This document shows positions 2,520 to 56,130 of a stretch of DNA of 64,000 nt, in pieces. Each line of letters begins with the position of its first letter. Position 1 is the first letter of the stretch. The stretch lies in the sequence record OK018184; one strand, given 5' to 3'. Both the position numbers and the translations under genes were made by a program. Source of the stretch: Shigella phage CT01. Below the pieces are notes generated by a model, which saw nothing but the letters and a program-made list of their open reading frames with translations, did no database searches and had not been told where the DNA came from.

Positions 2520-2556
2520 AATTAATTATACCACATCCTTGTGGTAAAGTAAACTA
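2520..2556 (-). promoter_or_regulatory. T4-type early promoter (minus strand)
   Basis: Reverse strand reads GTTTAC-18 nt-TATAAT (plus-strand gtaaac 2549..2554, attata 2525..2530). Confidence 0.6.
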
Positions 2557-3135
2557 CTGGCTCATCCATTCTTTACGAAGGTCAGCATTATCTCCCATGA
2601 GCATTTCAAAAAGCTCTTTCCAGTTCTCAGGAAGTTTAACAACATCATATACTGGGTTTTGAATCATCTCACGATATTCAGATTTTTCCAAAGAGCCAAG
2701 TCCTTTAATATAACGGATGCTATGTTTAGGTAGAGCATCTTTGGCACTCTCATATTCAGCGACTGTATAAAACCATTCTTGTTTTTTACCGACCTGAGCG
2801 ATGATTACAGGAGTTTTGACAAAGCGAATTCTTCCTTGTTCAAACAGTTCTGGCCAATTACTAAAAAATCCGAGCAGAGAAGGATAAATGCTTCCTAGAC
2901 CATCATGGTCAGCATCAGTCATAATAGCAATATTATGATAATTCAAGTTTTCAGCTTTTTCACCGAGAACTAATCCAGTGATTGCGCAAATATCAAACAG
3001 TTCTTTGTTTTTAAGCATGTCAGCATATGACATGCCCCAACTGTTGAGAACTTTACCACGTAATGGATAACCACCGTGAAGTTCTTTATCACGAACATCA
3101 ATAAGATATCCGATAGCCGAATCACCCTCAGTCAA
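2554..3135 (-). CDS. 60: DNA topoisomerase II large subunit, C-terminal fragment (T4 gp60-equivalent region), separated from the N-terminal part by the insertion
   Basis: 193-aa ORF with ...IMTDADHDGLGSIYPSLLGFFSNWPELFEQGRIRFVKTPVIIAQVGKK... matching T4 gp60; DHDG codons are contiguous (no 50-nt bypass gap); begins at an internal Met inside repeat copy 1. Confidence 0.75.
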   Translation of the reverse strand: MTEGDSAIGYLIDVRDKELHGGYPLRGKVLNSWGMSYADMLKNKELFDICAITGLVLGEKAENLNYHNIAIMTDADHDGLGSIYPSLLGFFSNWPELFEQGRIRFVKTPVIIAQVGKKQEWFYTVAEYESAKDALPKHSIRYIKGLGSLEKSEYREMIQNPVYDVVKLPENWKELFEMLMGDNADLRKEWMSQ

Positions 3136-3227
3136 GAAAAGAGTAGTATCAGCATCTTTACCACAAAGATTCGCTTTAATATGTTTATGAACCTTAGCTT
3201 TAGAAGCCTTTTTAGCTGCTTTAGTTT
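2856..3227. repeat. direct repeat copy 1 (372 bp, identical to 3901..4272) within the topoisomerase large-subunit coding sequence
   Basis: Exact identity read from sequence; both copies encode TEGDSAIGYLIDVRD...SLLGFFSN. Confidence 0.9.
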
Positions 3228-3281
3228 ATGACTGCATTTTATGCCGCTAATTTATGAGCTGCAGTTGTTCGATGTGGTGGT

Positions 3282-3380
3282 TTCTTCAATCTGAAAGCCG
3301 AGGTCTGAAAGTTTTTGCTGGAAGCGAGCGATGGAATCTTCCAGAGCGGCATCTTTGCCGGGGATAAATGTTTGCGTCAT
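3282..3380 (-). pseudogene. ycaO: 5' fragment (33 codons) of a ycaO-like gene
   Basis: Encodes MTQTFIPGKDAALEDSIARFQQKLSDLGFQIEE, which I recall as the E. coli YcaO N-terminus; truncated at the PstI junction. Confidence 0.7.
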
Positions 3381-3509
3381 GAAAATCACTTTAGTCGTAC
3401 GGAAAGCGCGCAATAATACGGGTTTTATCTCAAAGGCGCTATCACCGCCGCCATGCCGATGAACTGTTGACTATGCTTTTAGCGGATAAACCACGTTAAG
3501 AGCATAAAA

Positions 3510-3786
3510 ATGAAGGCGTTCGATCTCCACCGTATGGCATTTGATAAAGTGCCTTTTGATTTCCTTGGCGAAGTTGCACTACGTAGTCTTTATACCTTTG
3601 TACTGGTTTTTTGTTCCTCAAAATGACCGGAAGACGCGGTGTGCGACAGATGTCGCTGTTTGAAGTGTTAATCATTCTCACGCTGGGTTCAGCGGCGGGA
3701 GATGTGGCGTTTTATGATGATGTGCCGATGGTGCCGGTACTTATCGTCTTTATCACTCTGGCGTTGTTATACCGCCTGGTAATATG
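3510..3786 (+). pseudogene. ycaP: 5' fragment of a ycaP-like (DUF421 membrane protein) gene, divergent from ycaO', with a frameshift
   Basis: Encodes MKAFDLHRMAFDKVPFDFLGEVALRSLYTFVLVF then, after a 1-nt frame change, MSLFEVLIILTLGSAAGDVAFYDDVPMVPVLIVFITLALLYRLV; divergent arrangement with ycaO as in E. coli (recalled). Confidence 0.55.
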
Positions 3787-3871
3787 ATGGCGAGCTGGCC
3801 TGGTCGAAACTCAATAACTCCAACATGACGGAATTTGAGTTCTTTATGGAGCTACTAGTTGAATGGACTAT

Positions 3872-5419
3872 TCAGCAATGCACATTAATTGATTTTAAAA
3901 AATTACTAAAAAATCCGAGCAGAGAAGGATAAATGCTTCCTAGACCATCATGGTCAGCATCAGTCATAATAGCAATATTATGATAATTCAAGTTTTCAGC
4001 TTTTTCACCGAGAACTAATCCAGTGATTGCGCAAATATCAAACAGTTCTTTGTTTTTAAGCATGTCAGCATATGACATGCCCCAACTGTTGAGAACTTTA
4101 CCACGTAATGGATAACCACCGTGAAGTTCTTTATCACGAACATCAATAAGATATCCGATAGCCGAATCACCCTCAGTCAAGAAAAGAGTAGTATCAGCAT
4201 CTTTACCACAAAGATTCGCTTTAATATGTTTATGAACCTTAGCTTTAGAAGCCTTTTTAGCTGCTTTAGTTTCTGCTGCTTTTTCTGCCGCTAATTTACG
4301 AGCCAAAGCAGCTTCAATAATCGGCATTAGAATTGCTTCATTATTTAGAATAGCACGTGAAATCTTTTTAGCATCAAGTTGAATATGACTACGGATTTCA
4401 CCAAATGGAGAAGTCAAACGCTCTTTAGTTTGAGAATCAAATCGCATGTTTTTCATATCACGGACAAACATAACGATAGTCAAACATTCTTTAACGCGTG
4501 CTTTAGTCACATCAATTTTGAACTTACGTTTGATTTGTGGAATAAGGTCTTCACAAATATCATCCATAACACAGTCAATGTGATGGCCACCATTCTTAGT
4601 GTGAATGTTATTCACATAAGTTAATTGACGAAAACCATCCGGTGAACGACCAACCGCAATAGAGCAATTTTCTTGTTCTTGAACGATAGCATGCTCATCA
4701 TATTGGCGTGCATATTTCTTAAAATTACCCTGAACCTTTTTACCATTAAAGGTAAATTGAATATCAGGATAAACTACTGCAAGTGTCTGGAGACGATCTA
4801 GTGTAATGTCAAGATAAACTTGAGATAGCTCATTAGTTTCAAATGACATAAAATCAGGAATGAAAGTAACGCGAGTTCCTTTCCATTTTCCAGGAATATC
4901 TTCCCATGATTTATTTTCCATGCCGTTTGAACAACGAACCACAATATTATTTTGACCGTCGCCAGTTTCACCGACAAACATCACAGAAAAAATGTTAGTT
5001 AAACTAGAACCAACACCGTTCATACCGCCAGTGACGCGTTCTTTATCATCACCAAAGTTACCACCTGCTTTTGGAATAGTCCATGCAGCAACTGGACCAG
5101 GAATTTCTTCACCAGTAGGTGTTTTAACCATCGCCTGTGGAATACCACGACCGTTATCTTCAACTGTTACTTGATTGTTTTTGATAGTAACATTAATTTT
5201 ATTTGCGAATTTAAACTTAGTACGAATACCTTCATCTACCGAGTTATCGATAATTTCATCAATAAGCTTAACAAGACCAGGTACATACTGAACACTTTCC
5301 CATTTACCAAACAGAAAGCGCTCATGCATTTCATTAGCTGAAGAGCCAATGTACATGCCGCTACGCTTTTTGATATGTTCAATATCGCTCAGAATTTTAA
5401 TTTCATTCTTAATCATCAC
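3872..5419 (-). CDS. 39: DNA topoisomerase II large subunit (gp39), N-terminal 515-aa product truncated by the insertion (ends ...SLLGFFSN-FLKSINVHC)
   Basis: GyrB-like ATPase and TOPRIM sequence; the last 8 codons are read from junction sequence. Confidence 0.85.
   Translation of the reverse strand: MMIKNEIKILSDIEHIKKRSGMYIGSSANEMHERFLFGKWESVQYVPGLVKLIDEIIDNSVDEGIRTKFKFANKINVTIKNNQVTVEDNGRGIPQAMVKTPTGEEIPGPVAAWTIPKAGGNFGDDKERVTGGMNGVGSSLTNIFSVMFVGETGDGQNNIVVRCSNGMENKSWEDIPGKWKGTRVTFIPDFMSFETNELSQVYLDITLDRLQTLAVVYPDIQFTFNGKKVQGNFKKYARQYDEHAIVQEQENCSIAVGRSPDGFRQLTYVNNIHTKNGGHHIDCVMDDICEDLIPQIKRKFKIDVTKARVKECLTIVMFVRDMKNMRFDSQTKERLTSPFGEIRSHIQLDAKKISRAILNNEAILMPIIEAALARKLAAEKAAETKAAKKASKAKVHKHIKANLCGKDADTTLFLTEGDSAIGYLIDVRDKELHGGYPLRGKVLNSWGMSYADMLKNKELFDICAITGLVLGEKAENLNYHNIAIMTDADHDGLGSIYPSLLGFFSNFLKSINVHC
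3901..4272. repeat. direct repeat copy 2 (372 bp, identical to 2856..3227)
   Basis: Exact identity read from sequence. Confidence 0.9.
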
Positions 5420-6562: not shown

Positions 6563-6734
6563 TACAATTTCCTCATTAATTGAACATTGGAGCGGTGCGT
6601 TTCAGAAGAGTATCAGCACCTTTAACGAATTATCCATTTTATTCTTCAAGTTGTTTTCTGTATCAGTAGTTGATATTGATATAGTACCATAATCAACTAC
6701 TGATGTATATAGTTTTATGAAAAAATTTTAAACT

Positions 6735-7226
6735 TTATGCATAGCGAGCTTTGCTGTAGTGTTTAATCCAACTTTCAGGAATGACTTTGTATGTTCCTAA
6801 AAATACCGCGTTGTATAACTTAACGCCATCTTCTACCCATTGATCAGTAATGTATGCACACATAGCGCGAGTACGCTGAGGAAGTGGTTGTCCACCTTCG
6901 GTAAATTCAAACTCATAAGGAGCAATGAACTTAATAGCCTGACCGAGTTTCCACTTAAAGTCTACACCTACATGTGAAGTATCAATCGTTTCAATTCCTT
7001 TAGCAGGAACAGCTTTCAAAAACGCAGATTCAAGAAATTTCGCACGAACATAGCCAAACTGAGGTTTAGACTTTCCATCCTTAGGAATGATACGCACTTT
7101 TACTTCAGAATCTTCATCTTTAACGCCATGTTTAAGCTGAATGCTTACAATTTCAACCAATTTTCCTGTTGCTTTAGAACGGGATTTATCAGATACACGA
7201 GCAATTTCACCAATATTAATAATCAT
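6735..7226 (-). CDS. hypothetical early protein, paralog of 7302..7841
   Basis: 163 aa; shares motif ITDQWVEDGVKLYNAV with the neighbouring ORF (VTDQWIEDGVELLNVV). Confidence 0.55.
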   Translation of the reverse strand: MIINIGEIARVSDKSRSKATGKLVEIVSIQLKHGVKDEDSEVKVRIIPKDGKSKPQFGYVRAKFLESAFLKAVPAKGIETIDTSHVGVDFKWKLGQAIKFIAPYEFEFTEGGQPLPQRTRAMCAYITDQWVEDGVKLYNAVFLGTYKVIPESWIKHYSKARYA

Positions 7227-7265
7227 AGTTATCTCTCACTTGTTAAAAAGATTTTTACTCCACGG

Positions 7266-7302
7266 GACCATTATACTCTGGTCCCAAGAGTTTGTAAACT
7301 AT
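7266..7302 (-). promoter_or_regulatory. T4-type early promoter
   Basis: Reverse strand GTTTAC ... TATAAT (gtaaac 7294..7299, attata 7270..7275). Confidence 0.55.
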
Positions 7303-7841
7303 TAATTCAAAATAGCTACCACTGCACTACGAGGTACTACGCTAAAATCACCTGCATGAACAACGTTCAGAAGTTCAACACCATCTTCAATCCATTGGTC
7401 TGTTACCCAACCACAGACCGAAATAAATGGGGTCTTGATAGCTACTGCACGAGTCAAAAGGTCAGTAGGATCGCATTCTTGAAAGAGGATAAGCTCTGCT
7501 TCAAAAACTATAGTTTTAATTACTTCATCATTATCTAAACGGTGCACTCGAATCACGTAAGCTTTATTCTTATCATGCCAATTACTTTTTGAAAAACTTT
7601 TAACCACAAACTCGCCTTCACCAAAAACACTAGTCAATGCTTTATAACCCAAACTTAGCTCAGTAGTTTTAATTTCAGTTTCAACCAGTTTGTAGGTTTT
7701 GCCGATTTCAATAGCGGTAGTCATAGTAGGTTCCTTAATTTCCAGTGGTTTAACAGGGCATACATAAGTGCTTACAACATCAAAATCAATCAATTTAGCT
7801 ACCGGATTTGGTGTGTATTCAGGATTATAATTAAATTTCAT
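7302..7841 (-). CDS. hypothetical early protein, paralog of 6735..7226
   Basis: 179-aa ORF; shared C-terminal motif. Confidence 0.55.
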   Translation of the reverse strand: MKFNYNPEYTPNPVAKLIDFDVVSTYVCPVKPLEIKEPTMTTAIEIGKTYKLVETEIKTTELSLGYKALTSVFGEGEFVVKSFSKSNWHDKNKAYVIRVHRLDNDEVIKTIVFEAELILFQECDPTDLLTRAVAIKTPFISVCGWVTDQWIEDGVELLNVVHAGDFSVVPRSAVVAILN

Positions 7842-7842
7842 A

Positions 7843-8340
7843 TTATCTCATTTCAATAAAATCTACGAGTTCAGCATGTGATTTGCGGAACATTACTTGG
7901 TGCCCGCCAATGATAACTTGGTCATCTGGCACTTCGTATACAGCAAGATAAAATCCTTTAGAAGATAATTCTTCCCGCTCTTCTCGTGTGAACCATCTCA
8001 TCATATCATATTCGCTAGCAAAAGCAAAATGATAAAGAGCTATAAACCATCCTGGAATATGATATTCTACTCCAACATAATCTTTCTTGAACTTAGTATT
8101 AATTACTATATTAGCGTTTTTAACTAATAGTTTATCTTCGTGTGGTAAAGGAATTCTTTTATTATCGCTATGATGCATAAAATTAGGTCTATCATAACCT
8201 ACGTGTAATAACCACTCTTCGCTCCATGAATCTATTATACTCCTGTACGGCGTTATTTGAACACAAAGATTTCGACGTATTGTTATAGCATCTTCATAAT
8301 CAAGAATACTAAACGATGATTCAACACGATAAATTTTCAT
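7843..8340 (-). CDS. hypothetical early protein
   Basis: ORF 7843..8379 in the track; ATG at 8338..8340 (MKIYRV) is preferred because the promoter -10 overlaps the longer start. Confidence 0.5.
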   Translation of the reverse strand: MKIYRVESSFSILDYEDAITIRRNLCVQITPYRSIIDSWSEEWLLHVGYDRPNFMHHSDNKRIPLPHEDKLLVKNANIVINTKFKKDYVGVEYHIPGWFIALYHFAFASEYDMMRWFTREEREELSSKGFYLAVYEVPDDQVIIGGHQVMFRKSHAELVDFIEMR

Positions 8341-8363
8341 TTTATTATCCTCAGTAGCTATGG

Positions 8364-8400
8364 TGTTATAATACCACAACTAACCGAGGAAGTAAACAAC
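8364..8400 (-). promoter_or_regulatory. T4-type early promoter
   Basis: Reverse strand GTTTAC ... TATTAT (gtaaac 8392..8397). Confidence 0.5.
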
Positions 8401-8403
8401 TTT

Positions 8404-9087
8404 TTATCGTTTTGTTGGAAGAGACAGAGGATCGCACTCTTCCTCTGACGGAGCATCTTCAAGACCCATAGCATATCGCAAAGCATACTTCATCATCAGA
8501 ATGTCTTTCGCACAGTCATGAATAGAATCATGTGCAACGAATCCATCTAAAGCTCCCTTTGGAAGAGGACATGTGGTCATATCACGAACAAGGAGAAGTG
8601 CTTCAATTCTGGTACGAATATCACGCTGATTCCAGAATTTACATGGTTCTAACTTAAATGTGTCAAGTTCATTCTCAGAAACGCCATTAAGACGTTGAAT
8701 ATCGCGAATGAGATCGACTAAAATTGGAAAATCAAACGACATTCCACGGCACCATCCTTGAGATTTCCAAGGATCGATGTTATGTGCATTGATGTAATCA
8801 TTAAATTTTACAATACCATCGATAGTGCTTACATCTTCATCTGATGGTGCAATATTTTTTCGAGCTTCAGGAGACTGATTTTTCCACCATTCGATAGTGC
8901 TTTTAGTAAAAAGACGATGTCCTTTTTGGCTTTTTAAATCAAATTTGATTTTAATGCCGCGCGAAACTAATTCATCAAACGTTTCAACTACTTCTGGATT
9001 AGGGTCAAAAGCAATTACAGCCAAATCAATAACAGCTGCTTTTTCACCACTTCCCATTGTTTCAAAATCTATAATAAAATCAAACAT
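8404..9087 (-). CDS. dexA: exonuclease A (DnaQ-like 3'-5' exonuclease)
   Basis: 227-aa ORF, length and sequence as T4 DexA; MFDFIIDFETMG N-terminus. Confidence 0.8.
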   Translation of the reverse strand: MFDFIIDFETMGSGEKAAVIDLAVIAFDPNPEVVETFDELVSRGIKIKFDLKSQKGHRLFTKSTIEWWKNQSPEARKNIAPSDEDVSTIDGIVKFNDYINAHNIDPWKSQGWCRGMSFDFPILVDLIRDIQRLNGVSENELDTFKLEPCKFWNQRDIRTRIEALLLVRDMTTCPLPKGALDGFVAHDSIHDCAKDILMMKYALRYAMGLEDAPSEEECDPLSLPTKR

Positions 9088-9344
9088 TAAATTTTCCTTG
9101 CTAAATCGCGAATTTGACCTACAGTATAGTCTTGAATATAAACTTTATTAATGGGCTCATCAATAAATTTTGCCACAGATTCAATGTCTTTTTGTATCTC
9201 TTCAAGACTGTATACTATCTTTGAAGCTTTTTCGCGAATAGTAATATTTTCAGGACCTGGATTTTCTTGAATGACATCTTTAACACTTGTCATAAGAGAT
9301 TTAAACTGCCACCAACTTAATTCAATCATTAATAATCGCCTCAT
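9087..9344 (-). CDS. hypothetical early protein
   Basis: 85-aa ORF, stop/start overlaps with neighbours. Confidence 0.45.
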   Translation of the reverse strand: MRRLLMIELSWWQFKSLMTSVKDVIQENPGPENITIREKASKIVYSLEEIQKDIESVAKFIDEPINKVYIQDYTVGQIRDLARKI

Positions 9345-9582
9345 AAAGATAGCTAATTTCGCCTAAAACGTAATCATTGATTGTAACAGTTTTCACTTCA
9401 CCGCAAAAGAATTCTAACGCAATTAAATCTCGTTCAATTTCTTCTAATTGAAGCATCAACTTACTAGATTCAATTTTTACAGTTTTACGATTTTTACCAT
9501 GAGCAATTTCATAAATTTCGCTTACTTTATCTTGAAGAAGATAAAACTGATCTTTAGTTATTTCCACGAATAGCTTCCTCAA
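9322..9582 (-). CDS. hypothetical early protein
   Basis: 86-aa ORF. Confidence 0.45.
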   Translation of the reverse strand: MRKLFVEITKDQFYLLQDKVSEIYEIAHGKNRKTVKIESSKLMLQLEEIERDLIALEFFCGEVKTVTINDYVLGEISYLYEAIIND

Positions 9583-9588
9583 ATTTAA

Positions 9589-10908
9589 TCATACATAAAA
9601 TACATCATAACGACCACGAGTGACACCAACATAAAGAAGCTGCTGAGCTAATTCAGCATCTGCATAATGAATACAAGGCGTATAAATGAAAGCACGGTCT
9701 ACAGACATACCCTGAGCTTTATGGAATGTTGATGCAGGAAGTGCTTTCACTTTACTGAACTGTGATTTAGCATCCCAAAAATCACTCCATGGAGCTTTTC
9801 CGCCTTTGTTCCAATTTTTATAAGTTTCTGCCGTTTTACCTAAAAATAGGTTAAACTTATATAGCTCTTCATCAGATGAAATTATTTTAATCTTTTCACG
9901 ATAATATTCATCATCGCCGTAAGTTTCTACTGTTAAATCCCAATGACGAATTAGATATTCTCCAGAAACACCACGAGCTTTAACAAACGTCGATGTATAC
10001 TCTGCTTCTATAATACGAACTAATTGTCCGTTATTAAAAATAATTTCTGACACAGGCTTTCCATCAATTTTATATGTTTTAATTAATGGTTCCTGCATTA
10101 CAATAATTTCACCGACAATAAAATCTTTATCAGTTTCAAAAATCTTTTTGCGAATAATGTTATTTAACTTATCAACAGATTTATTCGTAAATGCCATTAC
10201 ACGATTTTCAAACAAATCATCTAGTGATTTGACGATTGAAAAATAATTTACCATAAAATCGCGTAAAGCGGTATCACCAGTAAATCCACGTACTCCATGT
10301 CCGTCAACAATTTTATCATAAATCCACTTACCGTTACGAACATCAGTAGCTACATCAATAATAGGAGCATTACTGCGTTTAACTTCAGTGAGTTCACACT
10401 GATAAAAATCTTTGTGTGTAAAGAATGGACTGATATAAGCAGTATTTTCTCCTGGGTCAACAGGTCTAATTTGCTTATTATCGCCTATTCCAATTATAGT
10501 ACACCATGGCGGGATAGTTGAAAGCAGAATTTTAAATAGCTTTCTATCGTACATTGACACTTCGTCGCAGATTAATACTCTGCATTTAGCCAAATCCGGT
10601 ACTTCTTTTTGTTCAAAAAGAACGTTTTCTTCATATGTTACTGGGTTAATTTTGAGAATACTGTGAATAGTACTCGCTTCTTTCCCTGATAGTTTTGAAA
10701 GAATCTTTTTAGCTGCATGTGTAGGAGCTGCTAAAATAATGCCAGTTTCGCCCGTAGATATTAAAGCTTCAATGATGAACTTAGTAAGAGTAGTTTTACC
10801 AGTACCGGCAGGTCCATTAATAGTTACATGATGTTTCTTTTCTTTGATAGCCCTCATAACGATGTTAAAGGCATTTTTCTGACCTTCGGTCAAATCATCA
10901 AATGTCAT
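9589..10908 (-). CDS. dda: Dda DNA helicase (SF1B)
   Basis: 439 aa; Walker A GPAGTGKTT; length as T4 Dda. Confidence 0.9.
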   Translation of the reverse strand: MTFDDLTEGQKNAFNIVMRAIKEKKHHVTINGPAGTGKTTLTKFIIEALISTGETGIILAAPTHAAKKILSKLSGKEASTIHSILKINPVTYEENVLFEQKEVPDLAKCRVLICDEVSMYDRKLFKILLSTIPPWCTIIGIGDNKQIRPVDPGENTAYISPFFTHKDFYQCELTEVKRSNAPIIDVATDVRNGKWIYDKIVDGHGVRGFTGDTALRDFMVNYFSIVKSLDDLFENRVMAFTNKSVDKLNNIIRKKIFETDKDFIVGEIIVMQEPLIKTYKIDGKPVSEIIFNNGQLVRIIEAEYTSTFVKARGVSGEYLIRHWDLTVETYGDDEYYREKIKIISSDEELYKFNLFLGKTAETYKNWNKGGKAPWSDFWDAKSQFSKVKALPASTFHKAQGMSVDRAFIYTPCIHYADAELAQQLLYVGVTRGRYDVFYV

Positions 10909-11216
10909 CGTAAATTCCCTGCAATTGGTATACTAACAATACGCCCAGTATCTAAAATTCGCCTATATAATCTTTGTGTGTCTACATCAGGCTTAACATG
11001 TTTAACTTCTATTTTATTAAACCAAAACTTGCGTGGAGTCTCAACTAATCTCGGAATTCCCATACCTAAAGCTAGTCGATACTGCTCTTTAAGAGTAGTA
11101 AATACTTTATCAGCAATCTCCCTTTCAAAAAATACAGCAGGACGATGTTCATCAAGAGGAACAGGCACCGCAAATCCATCTTTATCTCTATACACTATCG
11201 CATATACATAAAACAT
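10905..11216 (-). CDS. hypothetical early protein (dda.1 position)
   Basis: 103-aa ORF with 4-nt overlap to dda. Confidence 0.5.
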   Translation of the reverse strand: MFYVYAIVYRDKDGFAVPVPLDEHRPAVFFEREIADKVFTTLKEQYRLALGMGIPRLVETPRKFWFNKIEVKHVKPDVDTQRLYRRILDTGRIVSIPIAGNLR

Positions 11217-11217
11217 A

Positions 11218-11964
11218 TTATCCTCGGATAAGTTTAAAAATTGAACAATTTAGCGGGTATCCTCTTTTCAGTTTAAGTTTATCAATAAAAGACAAGTTTT
11301 GATACCGCTCTACACCTTGAATAATTTTATCACACATATCATATTGCATTTCTGCTTCTGACAACTTTTTCACAGTTTTCCAATCCGAGCCTTTAAGAAG
11401 AACGTTCAGTTTAACAACTTCAGCGCCTTCTGCTATACGAGAACCATCAATACGAGCTTTGAGTGCTATAATCGTTAGCTTAATGTCAGATGTTTGTTTT
11501 GACTTAGAAAGCTGAGAAATGTGCTCAATTCGGTTTTCACGTTTTTTCTGTATAGCTTTAATTTGATTATAAGTCTTTTTGATTTTAGCCCATTTCTTTT
11601 CATCTAAATTTAGTTTATGAACTTTTTTCGCAGATGAACGACCAATTCGCAAAGCAAATAAATCACGCTTTTCAATCAACTCTTCTAAAGTATAATCAGA
11701 ACGAAATGTATTATACTTTTTCTTTACTGCAATAACATTCCCTTTAATGTATCCAACGTTATTATCAAAACGTTCTAATGATAATTTCTCTCCTTCAATA
11801 CGATTATCAAAAGGTTCTCCCGAGTAAGCGCAAACTTTCTGATCTAAAATGTTCTTAATGTAATTGAAGTCTAAGTTAAAATCTTTAGAACGTCTTTTGG
11901 CAGATGCCTGAGTATGCTCTAAACGACGTGTAATTTTACGAATTTGATTTTTAGACAGTTTCAT
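11218..11964 (-). CDS. srd: basic early protein, possibly Srd-like
   Basis: 248-aa lysine-rich ORF at the srd position upstream of modA/modB. Confidence 0.4.
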   Translation of the reverse strand: MKLSKNQIRKITRRLEHTQASAKRRSKDFNLDFNYIKNILDQKVCAYSGEPFDNRIEGEKLSLERFDNNVGYIKGNVIAVKKKYNTFRSDYTLEELIEKRDLFALRIGRSSAKKVHKLNLDEKKWAKIKKTYNQIKAIQKKRENRIEHISQLSKSKQTSDIKLTIIALKARIDGSRIAEGAEVVKLNVLLKGSDWKTVKKLSEAEMQYDMCDKIIQGVERYQNLSFIDKLKLKRGYPLNCSIFKLIRG

Positions 11965-11989
11965 ATTTTTCTCACGGACGGTTAACTAC

Positions 11990-12026
11990 TTATACTATAT
12001 CATTTTTACTTCAGCTTGTAAACAAC
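11990..12026 (-). promoter_or_regulatory. T4-type early promoter
   Basis: Reverse strand GTTTAC ... TATAGT (gtaaac 12018..12023). Confidence 0.5.
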
Positions 12027-12079
12027 TTTATGAAAAATGCTTTAAAACTTTCATGGTATAATGAATCTAAGTCCTTCCA

Positions 12080-12682
12080 TTATAGATTAAATCCTTCAAA
12101 ATCAAGAGTATAGATAGTGTATGTTGAATACTTTTTATATTCATATCTATCCGCAATTCTAAATACACTTCCAGCTGGTATCATTACTTCTTGTTCATCT
12201 GAAACTAATTCCATATTACGATAGCGATGGCTATCTGGAAACTTAAAACTTGGACTATATTCTTTACAACGTAGAGCTTTTATAGCATACTCCTGAAAAT
12301 TAAATACCATAGGAGCTTTGAATTCAAAAATAACTTGTGTATTGTATTCTAATCCAGAAGCAAAATGTAGAGCTATATTTTTATCATATGAAGCTGATAC
12401 TACTTTATCAAATGTAATAATATCAATTCCTTGATTTAATACCTGCTTAGTCTCAACTGGAACACCTCTCCAAAGAGGTTTATCGTTTGGAACCAAACGA
12501 GATTTGATTATTTCATTTAACCAAGAGTGGTCGTCTGGCTTATTAGTAATACAATGAATTAAAAGTTCAATTTCAGATAAATTGAATCCTTCAGAAAGTA
12601 ATTCTTCACGAATAGAAGCACGCGCTGATGCATCCATTGATTTGATTTTAAAATCTTTTAATTGCATTGCTGAATATTTCAT
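12080..12682 (-). CDS. modA: ADP-ribosyltransferase ModA
   Basis: 200-aa ORF, size and position as T4 ModA; paralog of the adjacent ORF. Confidence 0.7.
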   Translation of the reverse strand: MKYSAMQLKDFKIKSMDASARASIREELLSEGFNLSEIELLIHCITNKPDDHSWLNEIIKSRLVPNDKPLWRGVPVETKQVLNQGIDIITFDKVVSASYDKNIALHFASGLEYNTQVIFEFKAPMVFNFQEYAIKALRCKEYSPSFKFPDSHRYRNMELVSDEQEVMIPAGSVFRIADRYEYKKYSTYTIYTLDFEGFNL

Positions 12683-13302
12683 TCAACTACCTCAATATCA
12701 TACACTTTAAATGTTCCAAATGAATCGTGTAATTTTTCTTTTGAAATAGAAGTTATTTTATACTTTCCAATTGGAATCATCCATTCTTGTTCACGCACAA
12801 TCATCATTAAGTTATCAGTACGTTCTGAATCTAATCCATCAGTATCTTCATATGTATACTTAAACTCAGTATTAGGAGAAGAAAGTATAATATCGCTGAT
12901 ATGGTCAGAGTAATTAAAAGCTTTATCAGTTTTTAAGCGAAATATTATTTCAGTGAAATACTCAACATAAGAAAAACCACACGCTGTGTGCAAACTAGTA
13001 GTAAATGAATCTACCCTGTTCGTTGAAAACACTTCTCCAACTTGTAAATCTTTAATGAGTTCTTTTGTCGATTTTGATATACCACGATATAGCTGATAAG
13101 GTGATTTAGTTAAATGCTTTTTAACGATTTTATTCAATTGCCGGTGAAGAGCTTCATTCTTTTTGGCTTCCATACATTGCCAAAGAACTGACTGTTCAAA
13201 GTCAGTAAATTTTTCACAGACCTTTTTATACATATCATATTGAAAATCAACACTTTCAGCTTTTATAGATAACTGTTCAACATCTACAAGATTAATAATC
13301 AT
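12679..13302 (-). CDS. modB: ADP-ribosyltransferase ModB
   Basis: ORF 12679..13314 in the track; the internal ATG gives 207 aa as in T4 ModB. Confidence 0.65.
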   Translation of the reverse strand: MIINLVDVEQLSIKAESVDFQYDMYKKVCEKFTDFEQSVLWQCMEAKKNEALHRQLNKIVKKHLTKSPYQLYRGISKSTKELIKDLQVGEVFSTNRVDSFTTSLHTACGFSYVEYFTEIIFRLKTDKAFNYSDHISDIILSSPNTEFKYTYEDTDGLDSERTDNLMMIVREQEWMIPIGKYKITSISKEKLHDSFGTFKVYDIEVVE

Positions 13303-13326
13303 GATAGCCTCCATATACTTCAGAAG

Positions 13327-13361
13327 CTATCATATCATTGTTAGGAAGGAAAGTAAACAAC
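13327..13361 (-). promoter_or_regulatory. T4-type early promoter
   Basis: Reverse strand GTTTAC ... TATGAT (gtaaac 13353..13358). Confidence 0.45.
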
Positions 13362-13369
13362 TTTTTGAA

Positions 13370-13552
13370 TTATTTTGCCCAGGGAGCCCAGGGCGGAGGG
13401 TCAAGATGGTATGAAGCTAGTTCTTCTAGAAGAGCATCTGGGGCTTCAATTCCATAATTCTGTAATACTATACGGTACTCTTTCTTATAATCACTAGAAT
13501 CATTCTGGATATTCGTAGAATGATTATCTTCTAACATCTCAAATAAATCCAT
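13370..13552 (-). CDS. hypothetical small early protein
   Basis: 60-aa ORF. Confidence 0.4.
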   Translation of the reverse strand: MDLFEMLEDNHSTNIQNDSSDYKKEYRIVLQNYGIEAPDALLEELASYHLDPPPWAPWAK

Positions 13553-13560
13553 ATTAATTC

Positions 13561-14043
13561 CTAGCGATAAAAACCAAAATAACGATTAGCTTCAATAATT
13601 TTTCTTTCTTCTTCGGACATTCTCCAGCGTAGTCCAACATCAAAATGAGCCCAGACCATCTTAACAAATGCATTTATATCTTTAATATCTTCAATAATGA
13701 ATGTTTTACTTTTAGAAGGTTGACCTGCTAAATTAAGTGCTAATTTAACTTTATCGTCTTCAAATAGGTCAAAAAGACCATATTCATGAGCTCTTTTATA
13801 GCCTTTGATAGTTAAAGCCTCAGAAGAAGAAAATGGTGAATCAGTATGCTGCAAAATATCTTCAGTATGCTTTATAATTAGAATAACATTTTCTGGGTAT
13901 TTTCTTTCTTTTATATCTTTAATTAAAATATCCGGATTTTCTGCCAAAGGAATAATTAATGAGCACTTTTTATCAAGTGTATTTACTGATTTACCTTCTT
14001 TAGACATAAATTCTATTGAATATAGTTTTGCTACTTCAATCAT
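13561..14043 (-). CDS. hypothetical early protein (mrh region)
   Basis: 160-aa ORF. Confidence 0.5.
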
Positions 14044-14196
14044 GTAATTTCCTCTTGCCTACTAACGGGCCGTCAGGAATTTTGTTTTCCTGGATATATT
14101 TCTCATTTTCTTCCATCATTTTACTGCCAATTTTAAGAAGCAAATCCAATGCTTCATTTGCTTTAGCCTTGGCCTCTTCTAGCTTCATATCTCTGT

Positions 14197-18458: not shown

Positions 18459-18487
18459 CGAGTAACTAGAATAAGAGATGTCAAATC

Positions 18488-18706
18488 CTACACCAAGTCC
18501 ATTAGATTATAATATGTAAAAGGCACCGGATTAACATCATTAGTCACAAGCACGTAATTAGCAACTGCTATAATTTCGTTGTTTTTAACGAATACAAACC
18601 GCGATTGATGCGAATGACCTGGACCTGCGTTTTCGCGATTAATGATATAACACTGGGCACCTTTATATTTGTACGTGTCTTTGCACTTGTGCATTTGATA
18701 AAGCAT
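18488..18706 (-). CDS. hypothetical early protein
   Basis: 72-aa ORF. Confidence 0.45.
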   Translation of the reverse strand: MLYQMHKCKDTYKYKGAQCYIINRENAGPGHSHQSRFVFVKNNEIIAVANYVLVTNDVNPVPFTYYNLMDLV

Positions 18707-24584: not shown

Positions 24585-24965
24585 TCACTTAGTCAAATTT
24601 TTTACACATGAATTATAAGAATTTACTACATACTCCATCGGAGCATTTTTACCGGTACGCCATTGGTAATTATTAGCCCAATTAGCCCAAAGCTCAGCGC
24701 AGTAGTTTTCAATTTTTTCTTCGCGTGTAATCACATCTGAATTGCGATATGCTTGGGCAGATTCATCTGGACGAATAGCTTCGTCAAAATTCGCCTGCAT
24801 TTGTTCTACTGTCTGTTTTGGAGCCTCTTTATAACACTTAACATTAGGATTATAAAATTTGCTTGAACAGTTTACAATTTTTCCTACATCAGACTGATTT
24901 ACTACCGGTCCTTGAGCTACACAACCAGTAAGACCCAATGCAATAACCAAAATAGCGATTTTCAT
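24585..24965 (-). CDS. predicted lipoprotein
   Basis: ATG at 24963..24965; MKIAILVIALGLTGC signal and lipobox; the track ORF 24585..25124 extends upstream through junction sequence from a GTG. Confidence 0.6.
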   Translation of the reverse strand: MKIAILVIALGLTGCVAQGPVVNQSDVGKIVNCSSKFYNPNVKCYKEAPKQTVEQMQANFDEAIRPDESAQAYRNSDVITREEKIENYCAELWANWANNYQWRTGKNAPMEYVVNSYNSCVKNLTK

Positions 24966-25019
24966 TTCATTCTCCAAATCCGCATCAGTTGATAGTTGTA
25001 TAGTACCATGGAAGAACAG
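24870..25019. repeat. direct repeat copy 1 (150 bp, identical to 25138..25287)
   Basis: Exact identity; covers the lipoprotein gene 5' end, RBS and promoter -10. Confidence 0.9.
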
Positions 25020-25137
25020 ACCTAATTGAACACCCAGCGTTCCATTAGTATTCATATGAAGATTATCATCAATTTTTATTGATACTTTACCATTCATGTG
25101 AATAACAGTATTAGATTCAATCACATCTCTGACTATC
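25020..25137. other. 118-bp segment between the direct repeats, origin unknown
   Basis: Open on the minus strand (VIESNTVIHMNGKVSIKIDDNLHMNTNGTLGVQLG), closed in all plus frames. Confidence 0.6.
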
Positions 25138-25233
25138 GTTTACAATTTTTCCTACATCAGACTGATTTACTACCGGTCCTTGAGCTACACAACCAGTAAG
25201 ACCCAATGCAATAACCAAAATAGCGATTTTCAT
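25117..25233 (-). pseudogene. truncated duplicate of the lipoprotein gene 5' end (38 codons)
   Basis: MKIAILVIALGLTGCVAQGPVVNQSDVGKIVN then DSQRCD-stop from junction sequence. Confidence 0.6.
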
Positions 25234-25287
25234 TTCATTCTCCAAATCCGCATCAGTTGATAGTTGTATAGTACCATGGAAGAACAG
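25138..25287. repeat. direct repeat copy 2 (150 bp)
   Basis: Exact identity to 24870..25019. Confidence 0.9.
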
Positions 25288-25300
25288 GGATGTAAACAGT
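25262..25300 (-). promoter_or_regulatory. T4-type early promoter (intact copy)
   Basis: Reverse strand GTTTAC (gtaaac 25292..25297) ... TACTATACA. Confidence 0.5.
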
Positions 25301-25385
25301 TTTGTGAAAAAATTTTTAATGAATTCCAGAGGTCCAGAATCATCTATTTTTCCTAAGTATAGATTTATATTACTTGTATGAAAAA

Positions 25386-39506: not shown

Positions 39507-39533
39507 ATCAAATCCTCAAAGGCAATTCATATG

Positions 39534-39569
39534 TTAATAATACCACAGTTTGAACTTCTTGTAAACAAC
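39534..39569 (-). promoter_or_regulatory. T4-type early promoter
   Basis: Reverse strand GTTTAC-18 nt-TATTAT (gtaaac 39561..39566). Confidence 0.5.
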
Positions 39570-39647
39570 TTTGTGAAAATTATTTTAGGGAATGATAAGA
39601 AGCGAATGATAGTTAGAATGGTAATATACAGAATGTGAGAAAGAAAG

Positions 39648-42621: not shown

Positions 42622-43091
42622 TTTAAACTCTTTCTAAGCTGCTTCTTAAATGAAGCTATTAATTGTGTTTTAGTGTCAGATTCATTATATTCAAATCCTC
42701 TTTGAAGCATCTCAGCCATCATTTCCTCTTTTCCTAAACGAGAAAATTCCTTTGATTTATCTCCAACGAAGTTAGGGTGAATATTATTTTGGGTGTAATC
42801 GGATTTTAAATAAGTAAGTAAATTTTCTAACCATTCAAGATAATCAACACCTTGTCCCTTTAAGCCAGAACGATTAAATTTATGTTTCATTTGACCTTCT
42901 GCAGCATTGCAGAGATTACATAGCAACCCACGTACCTTTCCTGCTTTTGGTCCATTTAATTCATGGTCATGGTCAAGGTGATTAGCTTGAACATCAGGAT
43001 TTAGTTCTCGTTGGCAAATTAAGCATTTACCGTTTTGTGCATTATAAAATTTTTGTTTTTCTTCTTTGTACAATTTGCCAGTCAATAACAT
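42618..43091 (-). CDS. 49: endonuclease VII gp49 (Holliday junction resolvase)
   Basis: 157 aa; zinc motif CLICQ...HLDHDH...CNLCN; length as T4 EndoVII. Confidence 0.9.
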   Translation of the reverse strand: MLLTGKLYKEEKQKFYNAQNGKCLICQRELNPDVQANHLDHDHELNGPKAGKVRGLLCNLCNAAEGQMKHKFNRSGLKGQGVDYLEWLENLLTYLKSDYTQNNIHPNFVGDKSKEFSRLGKEEMMAEMLQRGFEYNESDTKTQLIASFKKQLRKSLK

Positions 43092-43356
43092 AATAAACCC
43101 TTACCTTAAATAGATAAGGGTATTTATTATTTTCAAGTATTAAAATGCTCGTTCAGAAAAAGAAATTTGAGTTTCAAGAAGTTCTCGTTGGCAAATTAAG
43201 CATTTACCGTTTTGTGCATTATAAAATTTTTGTTTTTCTTCTTTGTACAATTTGCCAGTCAATAACATAATAAACCCTTACCTTAAATAGATAAGGGTAT
43301 TTATTATTTTCAAGTATTAAAATGCTCGTTCAGAAAAAGAAATTTGAGTTTCAAGC
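43003..43356. repeat. tandem duplication, 2 x 177 bp, spanning the gene 49 start and upstream hairpin
   Basis: 43003..43179 and 43180..43356 identical except for the last base. Confidence 0.9.
43140..43268 (-). pseudogene. duplicated gene 49 5' end (30 codons) fused in frame to the last 12 codons of the upstream gene
   Basis: MLLTGKLYKEEKQKFYNAQNGKCLICQREL-LETQISFSERAF. Confidence 0.6.
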
Positions 43357-50377: not shown

Positions 50378-50401
50378 TTTCTGTTCCTCCGTAGTTGATA
50401 G

Positions 50402-50438
50402 TTGTATAGTACCATAGAGGAACAGTCTTGTAAACCAC
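50402..50438 (-). promoter_or_regulatory. T4-type early promoter
   Basis: Reverse strand GTTTAC (gtaaac 50430..50435) ... TACTATACA. Confidence 0.5.
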
Positions 50439-50752
50439 TAAAAGAAACTTCTTTCACAATTTTTTCCACTGAACCATGCGCTCACTGCTTTCTTAGTCTC
50501 AGGAGCAGTGTTATCCATAAACCATTCAAAGGCAGCCTTTTTATGATTCTGGAGGGCTTCTCGGGCTTTAATCTGCTCACGGTCTATTAACACTAACATA
50601 TGAGCCTTTCTTGTCACCATGGGCTTCTTATGATTTTTTGAATACTCCCAGTCATTTGTCCATCGCATTGTCGTTGCGAACTTAAATACTGCTTCTTTAA
50701 TTTTAGTTTCGTAAATTTCACGAGCCTTTGAGTATAACATCATTACCTCCAT
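50438..50752 (-). CDS. hypothetical protein
   Basis: 104-aa ORF. Confidence 0.45.
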   Translation of the reverse strand: MEVMMLYSKAREIYETKIKEAVFKFATTMRWTNDWEYSKNHKKPMVTRKAHMLVLIDREQIKAREALQNHKKAAFEWFMDNTAPETKKAVSAWFSGKNCERSFF

Positions 50753-51879: not shown

Positions 51880-52143
51880 TTATTTTAATGTTTGCCAAAT
51901 TTTTACTGCTTCGCGACGAGATACTTCTACGGCGCCAAGTTCTATAGCTTTTTGGCGTCGCCGAGCGTGTAAGTCATAATGTTTAATGCGTTTATCTTGA
52001 AACCAAGAACGTTTCATTCCTATTGCTTCTGCCATTTCATGAAGCTCTTCAATATCTCCATCAGTGAACATATGACAATTTTTAGTTGGATGACCGCGAA
52101 GTTTCCATCCATGATTCATTAAAACATCTACGTAAACTGTCAT
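51880..52143 (-). CDS. hypothetical protein (intact copy)
   Basis: 87-aa ORF MTVYVDVLMNHGWKLRGHPTKN... Confidence 0.55.
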   Translation of the reverse strand: MTVYVDVLMNHGWKLRGHPTKNCHMFTDGDIEELHEMAEAIGMKRSWFQDKRIKHYDLHARRRQKAIELGAVEVSRREAVKIWQTLK

Positions 52144-52306
52144 TGATTCTTCTCCAAATACATTCCTATTGCTTCTGCCATTTCATGAAGCTCTTCAATA
52201 TCTCCATCAGTGAACATATGACAATTTTTAGTTGGATGACCGCGAAGTTTCCATCCATGATTCATTAAAACATCTACGTAAACTGTCATTGATTCTTCTC
52301 CAAATA
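52015..52306. repeat. perfect tandem duplication, 2 x 146 bp, spanning the 5' end of gene 51880..52143
   Basis: 52015..52160 identical to 52161..52306. Confidence 0.9.
52140..52289 (-). pseudogene. duplicated 5' fragment (43 codons) of gene 51880..52143 ending in YLEKNQ-stop
   Basis: Second ATG at 52287..52289 inside repeat copy 2. Confidence 0.55.
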
Positions 52307-52435: not shown

Positions 52436-52467
52436 TTTGTTTTTCCGTTTAAGTGTTTGTTTTGATA

Positions 52468-52505
52468 GTTGTATAGTACCATAAAGCTTTATGCTTGTAA
52501 ACAAT
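52468..52505 (-). promoter_or_regulatory. T4-type early promoter with A-rich upstream element
   Basis: Reverse strand aaaaatttttcacaaaattGTTTAC (gtaaac 52497..52502) ... TACTATACA. Confidence 0.55.
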
Positions 52506-52532
52506 TTTGTGAAAAATTTTTGAAATAAAAAA

Positions 52533-56040: not shown

Positions 56041-56065
56041 GATGTTCTCCTCTTTATCCGATGGT

Positions 56066-56101
56066 TGTATAGTATCACAGCTCAAATGGAAAGTAAACCA
56101 G
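56066..56101 (-). promoter_or_regulatory. T4-type early promoter
   Basis: Reverse strand GTTTAC (gtaaac 56093..56098) ... TACTATACA. Confidence 0.5.
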
Positions 56102-56112
56102 TAAAATGAAAA

Positions 56113-56130
56113 AGTCTCCCGAAGGAGACT
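56113..56130 (-). terminator. UUCG-tetraloop hairpin
   Basis: agtctcccgaaggagact. Confidence 0.45.

Follow-up and report, generated by a model that had tools for sequence, protein, structure and literature searches.

How did bacterial chromosomal DNA come to stand in the topoisomerase gene of the deposited genome of the T4-like Shigella phage CT01? In the window, by which we mean the whole analysed stretch of 64,000 nucleotides from sequence record OK018184, a 673-bp GC-rich block at 3228-3900, flanked by 372-bp direct repeats, splits a fused T2-type gene for the large subunit of topoisomerase II. With a GC content of 0.44-0.50 against a window mean of 0.35 this block deviates in GC more strongly than any other part of the 64 kb. 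The first repeat copy (2856-3227) is internal sequence of gene 39 and recurs without any change at 3901-4272 (372/372), so that the exact repetition already reported in the initial annotation of this DNA is confirmed. The 1,045-bp unit consists of a degenerate tract, a short filler, a host core, a modA-like tract and the second repeat copy. A transposable element insertion was ruled out, as the insert contains neither a transposase ORF nor terminal inverted repeats and as its flanking repeat of 372–403 bp is not a short target-site duplication.

The whole of 3228-3900 had been proposed to be enterobacterial. This holds for the high GC content and for the presence of a chromosomal match, but the match is limited to 3283-3855. 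These 573 bp are identical and gap-free (573/573) to the chromosome in five Shigella flexneri assemblies, including CP026871.1 and LR213452.1, and are made up of the first 33 codons of ycaO on the minus strand (ycaO', 3283-3380), the divergent ycaO/ycaP intergenic region (3381-3509) and the 5' part of a ycaP pseudogene on the plus strand (3510-3855), which carries a T-run frameshift and a 67-bp deletion. The minus strand of the block encodes MTQTFIPGKDAALEDSIARFQQKLSDLGFQIEE and the plus strand MKAFDLHRMAFDKVPFDFLGEVALRSLYTFVLVF; the ORFs of the insert are ycaO' and fragments of the ycaP pseudogene, and about 1000 S. flexneri contigs carry annotations of the 38-aa and 54-aa ORFs of the core. 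The divergent 5' ends of ycaO and ycaP had been recognised correctly, whereas their assignment to E. coli did not stand: the suggested comparison with K-12 does return the ycaO-ycaP match, but with 6 mismatches and additional indels, and the B strain likewise differs at 6 positions, which rules out both as the source of this DNA. The ycaP frameshift noticed on the plus strand is present as well, but together with the 67-bp deletion, which had escaped the initial annotation, it represents the pseudogene allele of S. flexneri itself. Engineering scars, PCR errors or sequencing errors were accordingly ruled out as an origin of the 1-nt and 67-bp lesions. Judging from the name of the phage, S. flexneri is the presumed propagation host. 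A moron, that is a host-derived accessory gene, was rejected too, since only 33 ycaO codons and a pseudogene fragment are present and neither 50,697 phage records nor IMG/VR contain the insert.

The consequence for the topoisomerase gene is a split into a 515-aa N-terminal and a 193-aa C-terminal part, as described before. The C-terminal fragment (2554-3135, minus strand), which begins with TTG and corresponds to the C-terminal part of the TOPRIM region, is exactly UDY80396.1 ('hypothetical protein [Shigella phage CT01]'), and Pfam TOPRIM_C matches a product identical to it. The truncated N-terminal ORF (3872-5416/5419, minus strand, 514/515 aa in the ORF list) equals, in its 514-aa form, UDY80397.1 ('DNA topoisomerase subunit [Shigella phage CT01]'). 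Its last 9 residues (FLKSINVHC) are foreign and are read from the modA-like tract, and an exact-protein look-up found the product in the NCBI record only. With both fragment proteins being part of the GenBank record, an edit made after the deposit was ruled out as the cause of the split. In-silico removal of 3228-4272 results in a 605-aa protein that is identical to that of RB33 and others and occurs on 290 contigs.

The repeats and the 573-bp core are free of errors, whereas each junction tract shows a single-base indel outside a homopolymer. On one side, 3228-3259 (minus strand) is a degenerate copy of the continuation of gene 39 at 4273-4303 (minus strand), the latter being the wild-type counterpart that agrees with a relative (L014). 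In the alignment 27 of 32 columns are identical, and the five changes counted in the initial annotation turned out to be four substitutions and one inserted base, which shift the reading frame and create an in-frame TAA. This variant is absent from the phage records, where the closest match reaches 91.7% over 60 nt. The adjacent 23 nt (3260-3282) have no verbatim source in the rest of the window, in 5,426 E. coli genomes, in plasmids or in 100,044 species genomes. They resemble weakly a part of S. flexneri ycaO located about 1.2 kb deeper in the gene (L018:1456-1485), with 22 of 31 columns in agreement, a borderline likeness as 4 of 300 shuffles score as well. On the other side, 3856-3900 (plus strand) is a degenerate inverted copy of the modB-stop/modA-start region of the phage itself, agreeing in 40 of 45 columns with the reverse complement of 12646-12689 (minus strand). 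This native source is intact, as are the modA and modB ORFs, which match UDY80411/UDY80412. The copy differs from it by four substitutions, all of them at A, and one inserted C, and its best match in any phage record is 91%. Adenine-specific mutagenesis similar to that of DGRs fits the modA tract, where 4/4 substitutions affect an A, and was rejected because the gene 39 tract does not follow this pattern.

Restriction sites and stop codons at these junctions had led to the suggestion of deliberate engineering. The phage would then be an insertion-duplication knockout, made with a PstI-tailed stop/frameshift primer on a gene 39 fragment, a stuffer joined through PstI/SpeI and a mutagenic modA primer sequence, followed by a single crossover, and we regard such a construction as improbable. 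Both hexamers are found where they had been located (CTGCAG at 3259-3264 and ACTAGT at 3854-3859) and coincide exactly with the outer limits of the two degenerate tracts. Each junction can be read as a tailed primer. From the frequency of common cloning hexamers in the window (0.7% of positions) we estimate a chance of about 3% that two of them fall at five junctions. Moreover, each tract has gained one nucleotide as well as stop codons: in the gene 39 tract two in-frame GAA have become TAA, leaving three TAA 13 nt apart with one per frame, and the changes in the modA tract create TAATTGA. However, the hexamers consist partly of native bases, the C of CTGCAG belonging to gene 39 and the TAGT of ACTAGT to the sequence upstream of modA, with AC coming from the host. 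Stops in all three frames do exist, but the five changes had to supply only the in-frame one and not all three as had been assumed, because the two other frames are already closed by stops in the wild-type tract. The record describes a plain isolate, 'Shigella phage CT01', with no sign of manipulation in the protein names, and between the repeats we found no vector, marker or origin; a plasmid search matched only the ycaO-ycaP core, in mislabelled chromosomal records. What would be the stuffer is wild S. flexneri chromosome and not K-12 or B, native modA was left untouched, and the modA tract ends 10 nt past its last change and directly adjoins gene 39, which no simple cloning scheme predicts. 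Because of the nature of the record, the host DNA, the absent vector, the part-native hexamers and the single new stop, the engineering suggestion is not supported.

Work by Selick, Kreuzer and Alberts from 1988 is said to describe a T4 insertion/substitution (I/S) vector from which a cloned target fragment integrates by one crossover, leaving direct repeats around the insert. Integrants of this kind resemble the CT01 locus in the direct repeats of the target that flank the inserted DNA and in the reversion by recombination between them. They differ in that CT01 has neither plasmid backbone nor supF or another marker, that its insert is wild S. flexneri chromosome and that recombination of its repeats only restores the wild type and leaves no substitution behind. 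No parental lab phage was detected among the phage genomes searched, the closest relatives being about 97% identical, and a literature search on ycaO/ycaP together with phage, on insertional gene 39 knockouts and on CT01 gave nothing relevant; an article dealing with intercalating drugs and Tevenvirinae proved to have no bearing on the matter.

We also looked at the remainder of the assembly. It contains a 146-nt perfect tandem (52015-52306), which is single-copy in 148 of 148 matching phage records, and a 176-nt perfect tandem with one filler base (43003-43355); these two are pure tandem duplications without microhomology. Furthermore, a 150-nt pair at 24870-25287 surrounds 118 nt of a gene that CT01 otherwise lacks at that site. 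This filler (25020-25137) is a fragment of RB18 ORF048 and shows an extra base and a substitution close to the junction. Being built like the gene 39 locus with no conceivable design behind it, the 150-nt duplication also speaks against engineering. None of the 146-nt, 176-nt and 150-nt perfect duplications is shared by any relative, and a length error in a C-run at about 15087 disrupts the frame of an ORF which three relatives have in intact form. The rest of the assembly is clean: near-identical relatives differ from it by no indel in 22-2556 and by a single in-frame indel in 6976-14181. The insertion junctions of CT01 are absent from all phage records searched and from IMG/VR contigs, and the insert itself was not found in a T-even context in 50,697 phage records and IMG/VR.

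The host block in the topoisomerase gene most likely reflects a chimera of the assembly or else a rare variant that is unstable, and not engineering or a new biological system. The two alternatives named last in the initial annotation, host-DNA capture and chimeric assembly, are those favoured by the evidence over engineering. With modest confidence we think that the 1,045-bp unit is probably a chimeric, poorly supported stretch of the deposited assembly that the bulk of the CT01 virions do not carry. The foreign segment is that of the presumed propagation host over 573 of 573 positions including its private ycaP lesions, quality drops at the junctions only, and the same assembly has other structural errors. 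Restoration of the conserved 605-aa protein by deletion of 3228-4272, the unique perfect duplications and the C-run frameshift elsewhere, and the missing junctions in phage records and IMG/VR all count in the same direction. At the junctions of a fixed insertion with good coverage, the copies of gene 39 and modA sequence would be exact. T4 gene 39 mutants are DNA-delay mutants with a growth disadvantage and direct repeats of 372 bp readily recombine out; therefore, a reverting insertion is not expected to be fixed in a plaque-purified stock.

For such a chimera the following history at the read level can be envisaged, which also presumes a particular kind of sequencing technology. DNA of the S. 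flexneri propagation host may have contaminated the phage DNA preparation, and one or a few error-prone reads, derived from chimeric molecules or rare aberrant genomes, would have joined host DNA to gene 39 and been kept in the draft. Abundant reads could then have polished the alignable pieces, namely the two gene 39 copies and the 573-bp host core, and the short junction tracts would have retained raw-read errors because no reads covered them. Chimeras with host contaminants and duplications from untrimmed overlaps in phage assemblies show the same features: the foreign DNA is that of the propagation host, the perfect duplications are unique to one record, low quality is confined to the junctions and removal of the block restores a conserved gene. 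The CT01 block differs from them as it is internal instead of at a contig end and consists of several short pieces, and it is recognised here from the assembled sequence.

Several points count against a chimera. Weak read support is inferred, and the assembly is clean outside these spots. A read with pieces of 26 nt, 573 bp and 45 nt between phage segments that overlap by 403 bp would be an odd library artefact, and four such structures in 64 kb are many. The two in-frame GAA to TAA changes with one added base in the gene 39 tract resemble design. Moreover, a duplication flanking an insert is the exact product of the integration of a small circle by single crossover or of aberrant double-strand-break repair in vivo, and the distal junction lies 34–97 bp from the site of the T4 mobA/gene-60 cassette, a plausible natural break site.

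These last points lead to a recent and genuine capture of host DNA by phage growing on S. flexneri, which we consider possible but doubtful. In one route a small circle of a 403-bp gene 39 fragment, host DNA and a modA fragment would integrate by one homologous crossover. In another, gene 39 would be broken, perhaps by a MobA-type endonuclease of a co-infecting T4-type phage, extended on both sides from a sister genome and end-joined with filler. With either route the filler would come to lie between duplicated sequences and interrupt the topoisomerase gene in a way that recombination of the repeats could undo. The order of repeat, insert and repeat is the signature of Campbell-type integration or aborted synthesis-dependent repair, and DNA like that of the filler would be available during infection of S. 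flexneri. Projected onto CT01, the T4 mobA/gene-60 cassette falls at 2890-2953 and so within the repeat, the RB18 ORF048 fragment at 25020-25137 is a hint that another T-even phage was encountered, and the deposited record retains the structure with both halves annotated; if it was assembled from accurate short reads, the junction sequences must be real molecules. On the other hand, the T4 polymerase is accurate and the degenerate tracts therefore have no known in vivo source, while the 573-bp core that this event copied as well contains no errors. Microhomology is absent from both pure tandem duplications, an unselected insertion that reverts and impairs growth would not be expected to reach fixation in a purified stock, and the structure is missing from all other phage records and viral contigs searched.

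The capture can be formulated more specifically as a break at a MobA-type target in the fused gene 39 during co-infection with a T4-type phage, repaired in an end-joining-like manner with a 403-bp duplication and imperfectly templated filler of host and phage origin. In this detailed form we rate it as unlikely. If true, it would be a snapshot of gene splitting in T-even phages and of host-DNA uptake, as well as evidence that infected cells possess an error-prone and as yet undescribed joining pathway, which could have produced the other duplications of CT01. Bonocora and colleagues reportedly demonstrated in 2011 the mobility of the mobA homing-endonuclease cassette of T4. In T4 (NC_000866.4) the same gene is broken no more than about 100 bp away from the CT01 position, which likewise yields an N-terminal part of about 515 aa next to a short C-terminal one, but CT01 has no endonuclease gene, none being among the ORFs of its insert, and no counterpart of the 50-nt bypass element, and its insert is host DNA. 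The T4 cassette replaces CT01 2890-2953, whereas the CT01 junctions at 2855/2856 and 3259/3260 are near but not the same. Repair by aborted synthesis-dependent strand annealing and end joining with templated filler is best known from Drosophila and polymerase theta. It likewise yields a duplicated interval, filler copied in either orientation from templates that lie nearby or are unrelated, with imperfect copies at the joints, but the likeness to CT01 is one of outcome only, and we know of no templated-filler polymerase or pathway in T-even phages or Shigella.

A further idea is that of a real, selected split into two overlapping, cooperating polypeptides like T4 gp39/gp60, with host promoter DNA driving the downstream half. 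The break no more than about 100 bp from the point at which 39 and 60 are naturally separated in T4, the ycaO promoter region oriented as gene 39 and the 193-aa ORF covering the gp60-equivalent region would fit this. We nevertheless find it highly improbable, as that ORF begins with TTG and no ribosome-binding sequence was seen upstream on reading, a promoter scan of the insert on the gene 39 strand revealed no strong promoter, the same structure was found nowhere else and every objection to a real, fixed insertion applies here too. In contrast to the T4 proteins, the CT01 halves share an overlap of 134 aa, which results from the duplication.

If the structure is an artefact, as we favour, the topoisomerase gene is falsely split in the public CT01 record, which also contains host DNA and several spurious duplications. 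Annotation, comparative studies and claims of host-gene transfer can be misled by them. If it is real, it would join a very short list of documented cases in which a T-even phage captured chromosomal DNA of its host, would lie beside the split site of T4 itself, and would bear on the origin of gene splits and gene uptake, a claim that the present evidence does not justify. For the 150-nt duplication at 24870-25287 a natural shuffle of a promoter cassette is possible, but against it stands that the filler is degenerate near the junction like the other tracts.

The genome under study is of the T-even type (Tequatrovirus), with no phage of the BLAST collection exceeding ~97% identity to the window. 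On its minus strand rIIA (108–2285; UDY80394.1 by exact-protein look-up) is followed by rIIA.1 and by a fused, T2-type gene for the topoisomerase II large subunit (gene 39). As the initial annotation had described, this gene contains an exact direct repeat (2856–3227 and 3901–4272, 372/372 identical) whose two copies are separated by a 673-bp block at 3228–3900, which stands out in GC more than any other part of the 64 kb, and it is split into a 514/515-aa N-terminal and a 193-aa C-terminal ORF. Both halves are annotated in the CT01 record of 168,362 bp (UDY80397.1, 'DNA topoisomerase subunit', 514 aa; UDY80396.1, 'hypothetical protein', 193 aa), showing that the insertion is part of the public deposit, and its presence in the CT01 sequence is confirmed. 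With 3228–4272 removed, the gene again encodes a 605-aa protein that RB33 and others share without difference, on 290 contigs, a point in favour of an assembly chimera. The 514-aa product occurs in the NCBI record only, among all sources searched. A selected, functional gene split as in T4 appears to us extremely improbable.

The insertion is made up of five parts. Its first part (3228–3259) extends the gene 39 homology as a degenerate copy of 4273–4303, identical in 27 of 32 aligned columns; four substitutions and a single added base make up the five changes noticed before. A separate T-even contig (Logan ERR4622922_1895) carries at its positions 1300–1320 an A5-to-A4 frameshift within this same tract, giving a 193-aa C-terminal ORF identical to that of CT01, probably by coincidence or assembly error. 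The following 23 nt (3260–3282) have no verbatim source in the window, E. coli genomes, plasmids or 100,044 species genomes; they resemble only Shigella flexneri ycaO ~1.2 kb deeper in the gene (22/31 columns), which is borderline as an equal score was reached in 4 of 300 shuffles. Next comes the core (3283–3855), an enterobacterial ycaO'-intergenic-ycaP' segment, and then an inverted degenerate copy of CT01's own modB-stop/modA-start (3856–3900; 40/45 columns, the differences being four substitutions, at A, and an extra C), directly abutted by the second repeat copy (3901–4272). The native modB-stop/modA-start at 12646–12689 is intact, the genes being UDY80411 (modA) and UDY80412 (modB) by exact-protein look-up. 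The modB ORF (12679–13314) encodes 211 aa in CT01, compared to 207 aa in most members of its 90% cluster.

The assignment of the insert to ycaO and ycaP was correct but its attribution to E. coli was not. Compared to E. coli the core lacks 1 nt of a T-run and a further 67 bp, with six mismatches each to K-12 and B, and only phylogroup-B1-like strains come close, whereas it matches five S. flexneri assemblies without gaps over all 573 bases (100.000%). The two small ORFs arising from the core lesions are found, exact and adjacent, on ~1000 S. flexneri-annotated contigs; thus the supposed frameshift is the host species' own ycaP pseudogene. Judged by this identity, the core is DNA of the presumed propagation host of CT01 and not of a cloning strain.

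Deliberate engineering, which had been the preferred explanation, is not supported and we regard it as very improbable: no sequence like that of a vector, marker or origin lies between the repeats, and native modA was left untouched. The sites CTGCAG (3259–3264) and ACTAGT (3854–3859) are indeed present, and two cloning hexamers at five junctions are notable, with an estimated chance of ~3% (30 common cloning hexamers take up 0.7% of the window positions), but this test was chosen post hoc. CTGCAG takes its C from the end of the gene 39 sequence, and in ACTAGT the TAGT is native sequence upstream of modA and the AC is host sequence. Of the stops proposed for all three frames only the in-frame one is new, as the wild-type tract is already stopped in both off-frames. 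In the gene 39 tract, the change of two in-frame GAA codons to TAA together with one added base might be taken for design, yet the two changes share the heptamer context GCAGAAA, like a context-dependent sequencing error.

A chimeric stretch in the assembly is, on balance, the explanation we consider probable. Decisive for us is the contrast in quality between the long pieces, which are perfect (repeats 372/372, core 573/573), and the short junction tracts, each of which departs from its source by 11–29% and contains single-base indels that lie outside homopolymers. An insertion fixed in the stock, with coverage like that of the rest of the genome, would show exact gene 39, modA and ycaO sequence in these tracts. 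Partial polishing of a draft assembled from one or a few noisy chimeric reads would leave just this picture, with degeneracy only in stretches to which normal reads from phage or host could not be aligned. Gene 39 mutants of T4 are DNA-delay mutants and 372-bp repeats readily recombine out, so that an insertion both costly and reverting should not remain fixed after plaque purification.

A genuine capture of host DNA, recent and unstable, we consider less likely. The repeat-insert-repeat layout is the hallmark of a small circle integrating by a single crossover, and also of a break whose ends are extended from a sister genome before filler joins them. The T4 mobA/gene-60 cassette replaces CT01 2890–2953, inside the repeat and 34–97 bp from the distal junction (2855/2856), and this proximity makes a homing-endonuclease break a plausible trigger. 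The assembly is also clean away from the oddities, and four read-level chimeras per 64 kb would be many. The remaining probability belongs to explanations not yet thought of.

Further marks of the kind expected from a chimeric assembly are two duplications and a C-run frameshift. A perfect 146-nt tandem duplication without microhomology (52015–52160 and 52161–52306) spans the ribosome-binding site of a DUF4031 gene together with its first 43 codons; the relative SF2-1 and 148/148 matching phage records have this unit only once. A perfect 176-nt tandem duplication (43003–43178 and 43180–43355, with one extra filler base 'a' between) covers the ends of two genes with an intergenic hairpin, and its unit occurs only once in SF2-1. 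At ~15087 a C-run is shortened from CCC to CC, frameshifting a 113-aa ORF intact in the relatives L014, SF2-1 and teqdroes, perhaps through an error in sequencing the homopolymer.

At 24870–25287 a perfect 150-nt duplication (5' end of imm.1 and early promoter) surrounds 118 nt of ORF048 from the T-even phage RB18, a gene otherwise absent from this CT01 site; the last ~16 nt of this filler, near the junction, show an extra base and a substitution compared to RB18. This structure is built like the gene 39 insertion and no design is conceivable for it, which speaks further against engineering. The stretch of ORF048 may point to another T-even phage having been present in the sample, in favour of a genuine event.

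A 208-aa ORF of SF2-1 is frameshifted in CT01 at ~18485–18494, where 38 nt are deleted between two imperfectly matching direct repeats of 11 nt (AATCCTACACC / AATCGTACGCC). Six plus-strand repeats of ~60 nt (6670–6729, 25257–25316, 39526–39585, 50395–50454, 52462–52521 and 56058–56117) form a family that would match, read on the minus strand, the T4 early-promoter consensus (GTTTAC...TATAGTACCA); these putative promoters are ordinary for T-even genomes.
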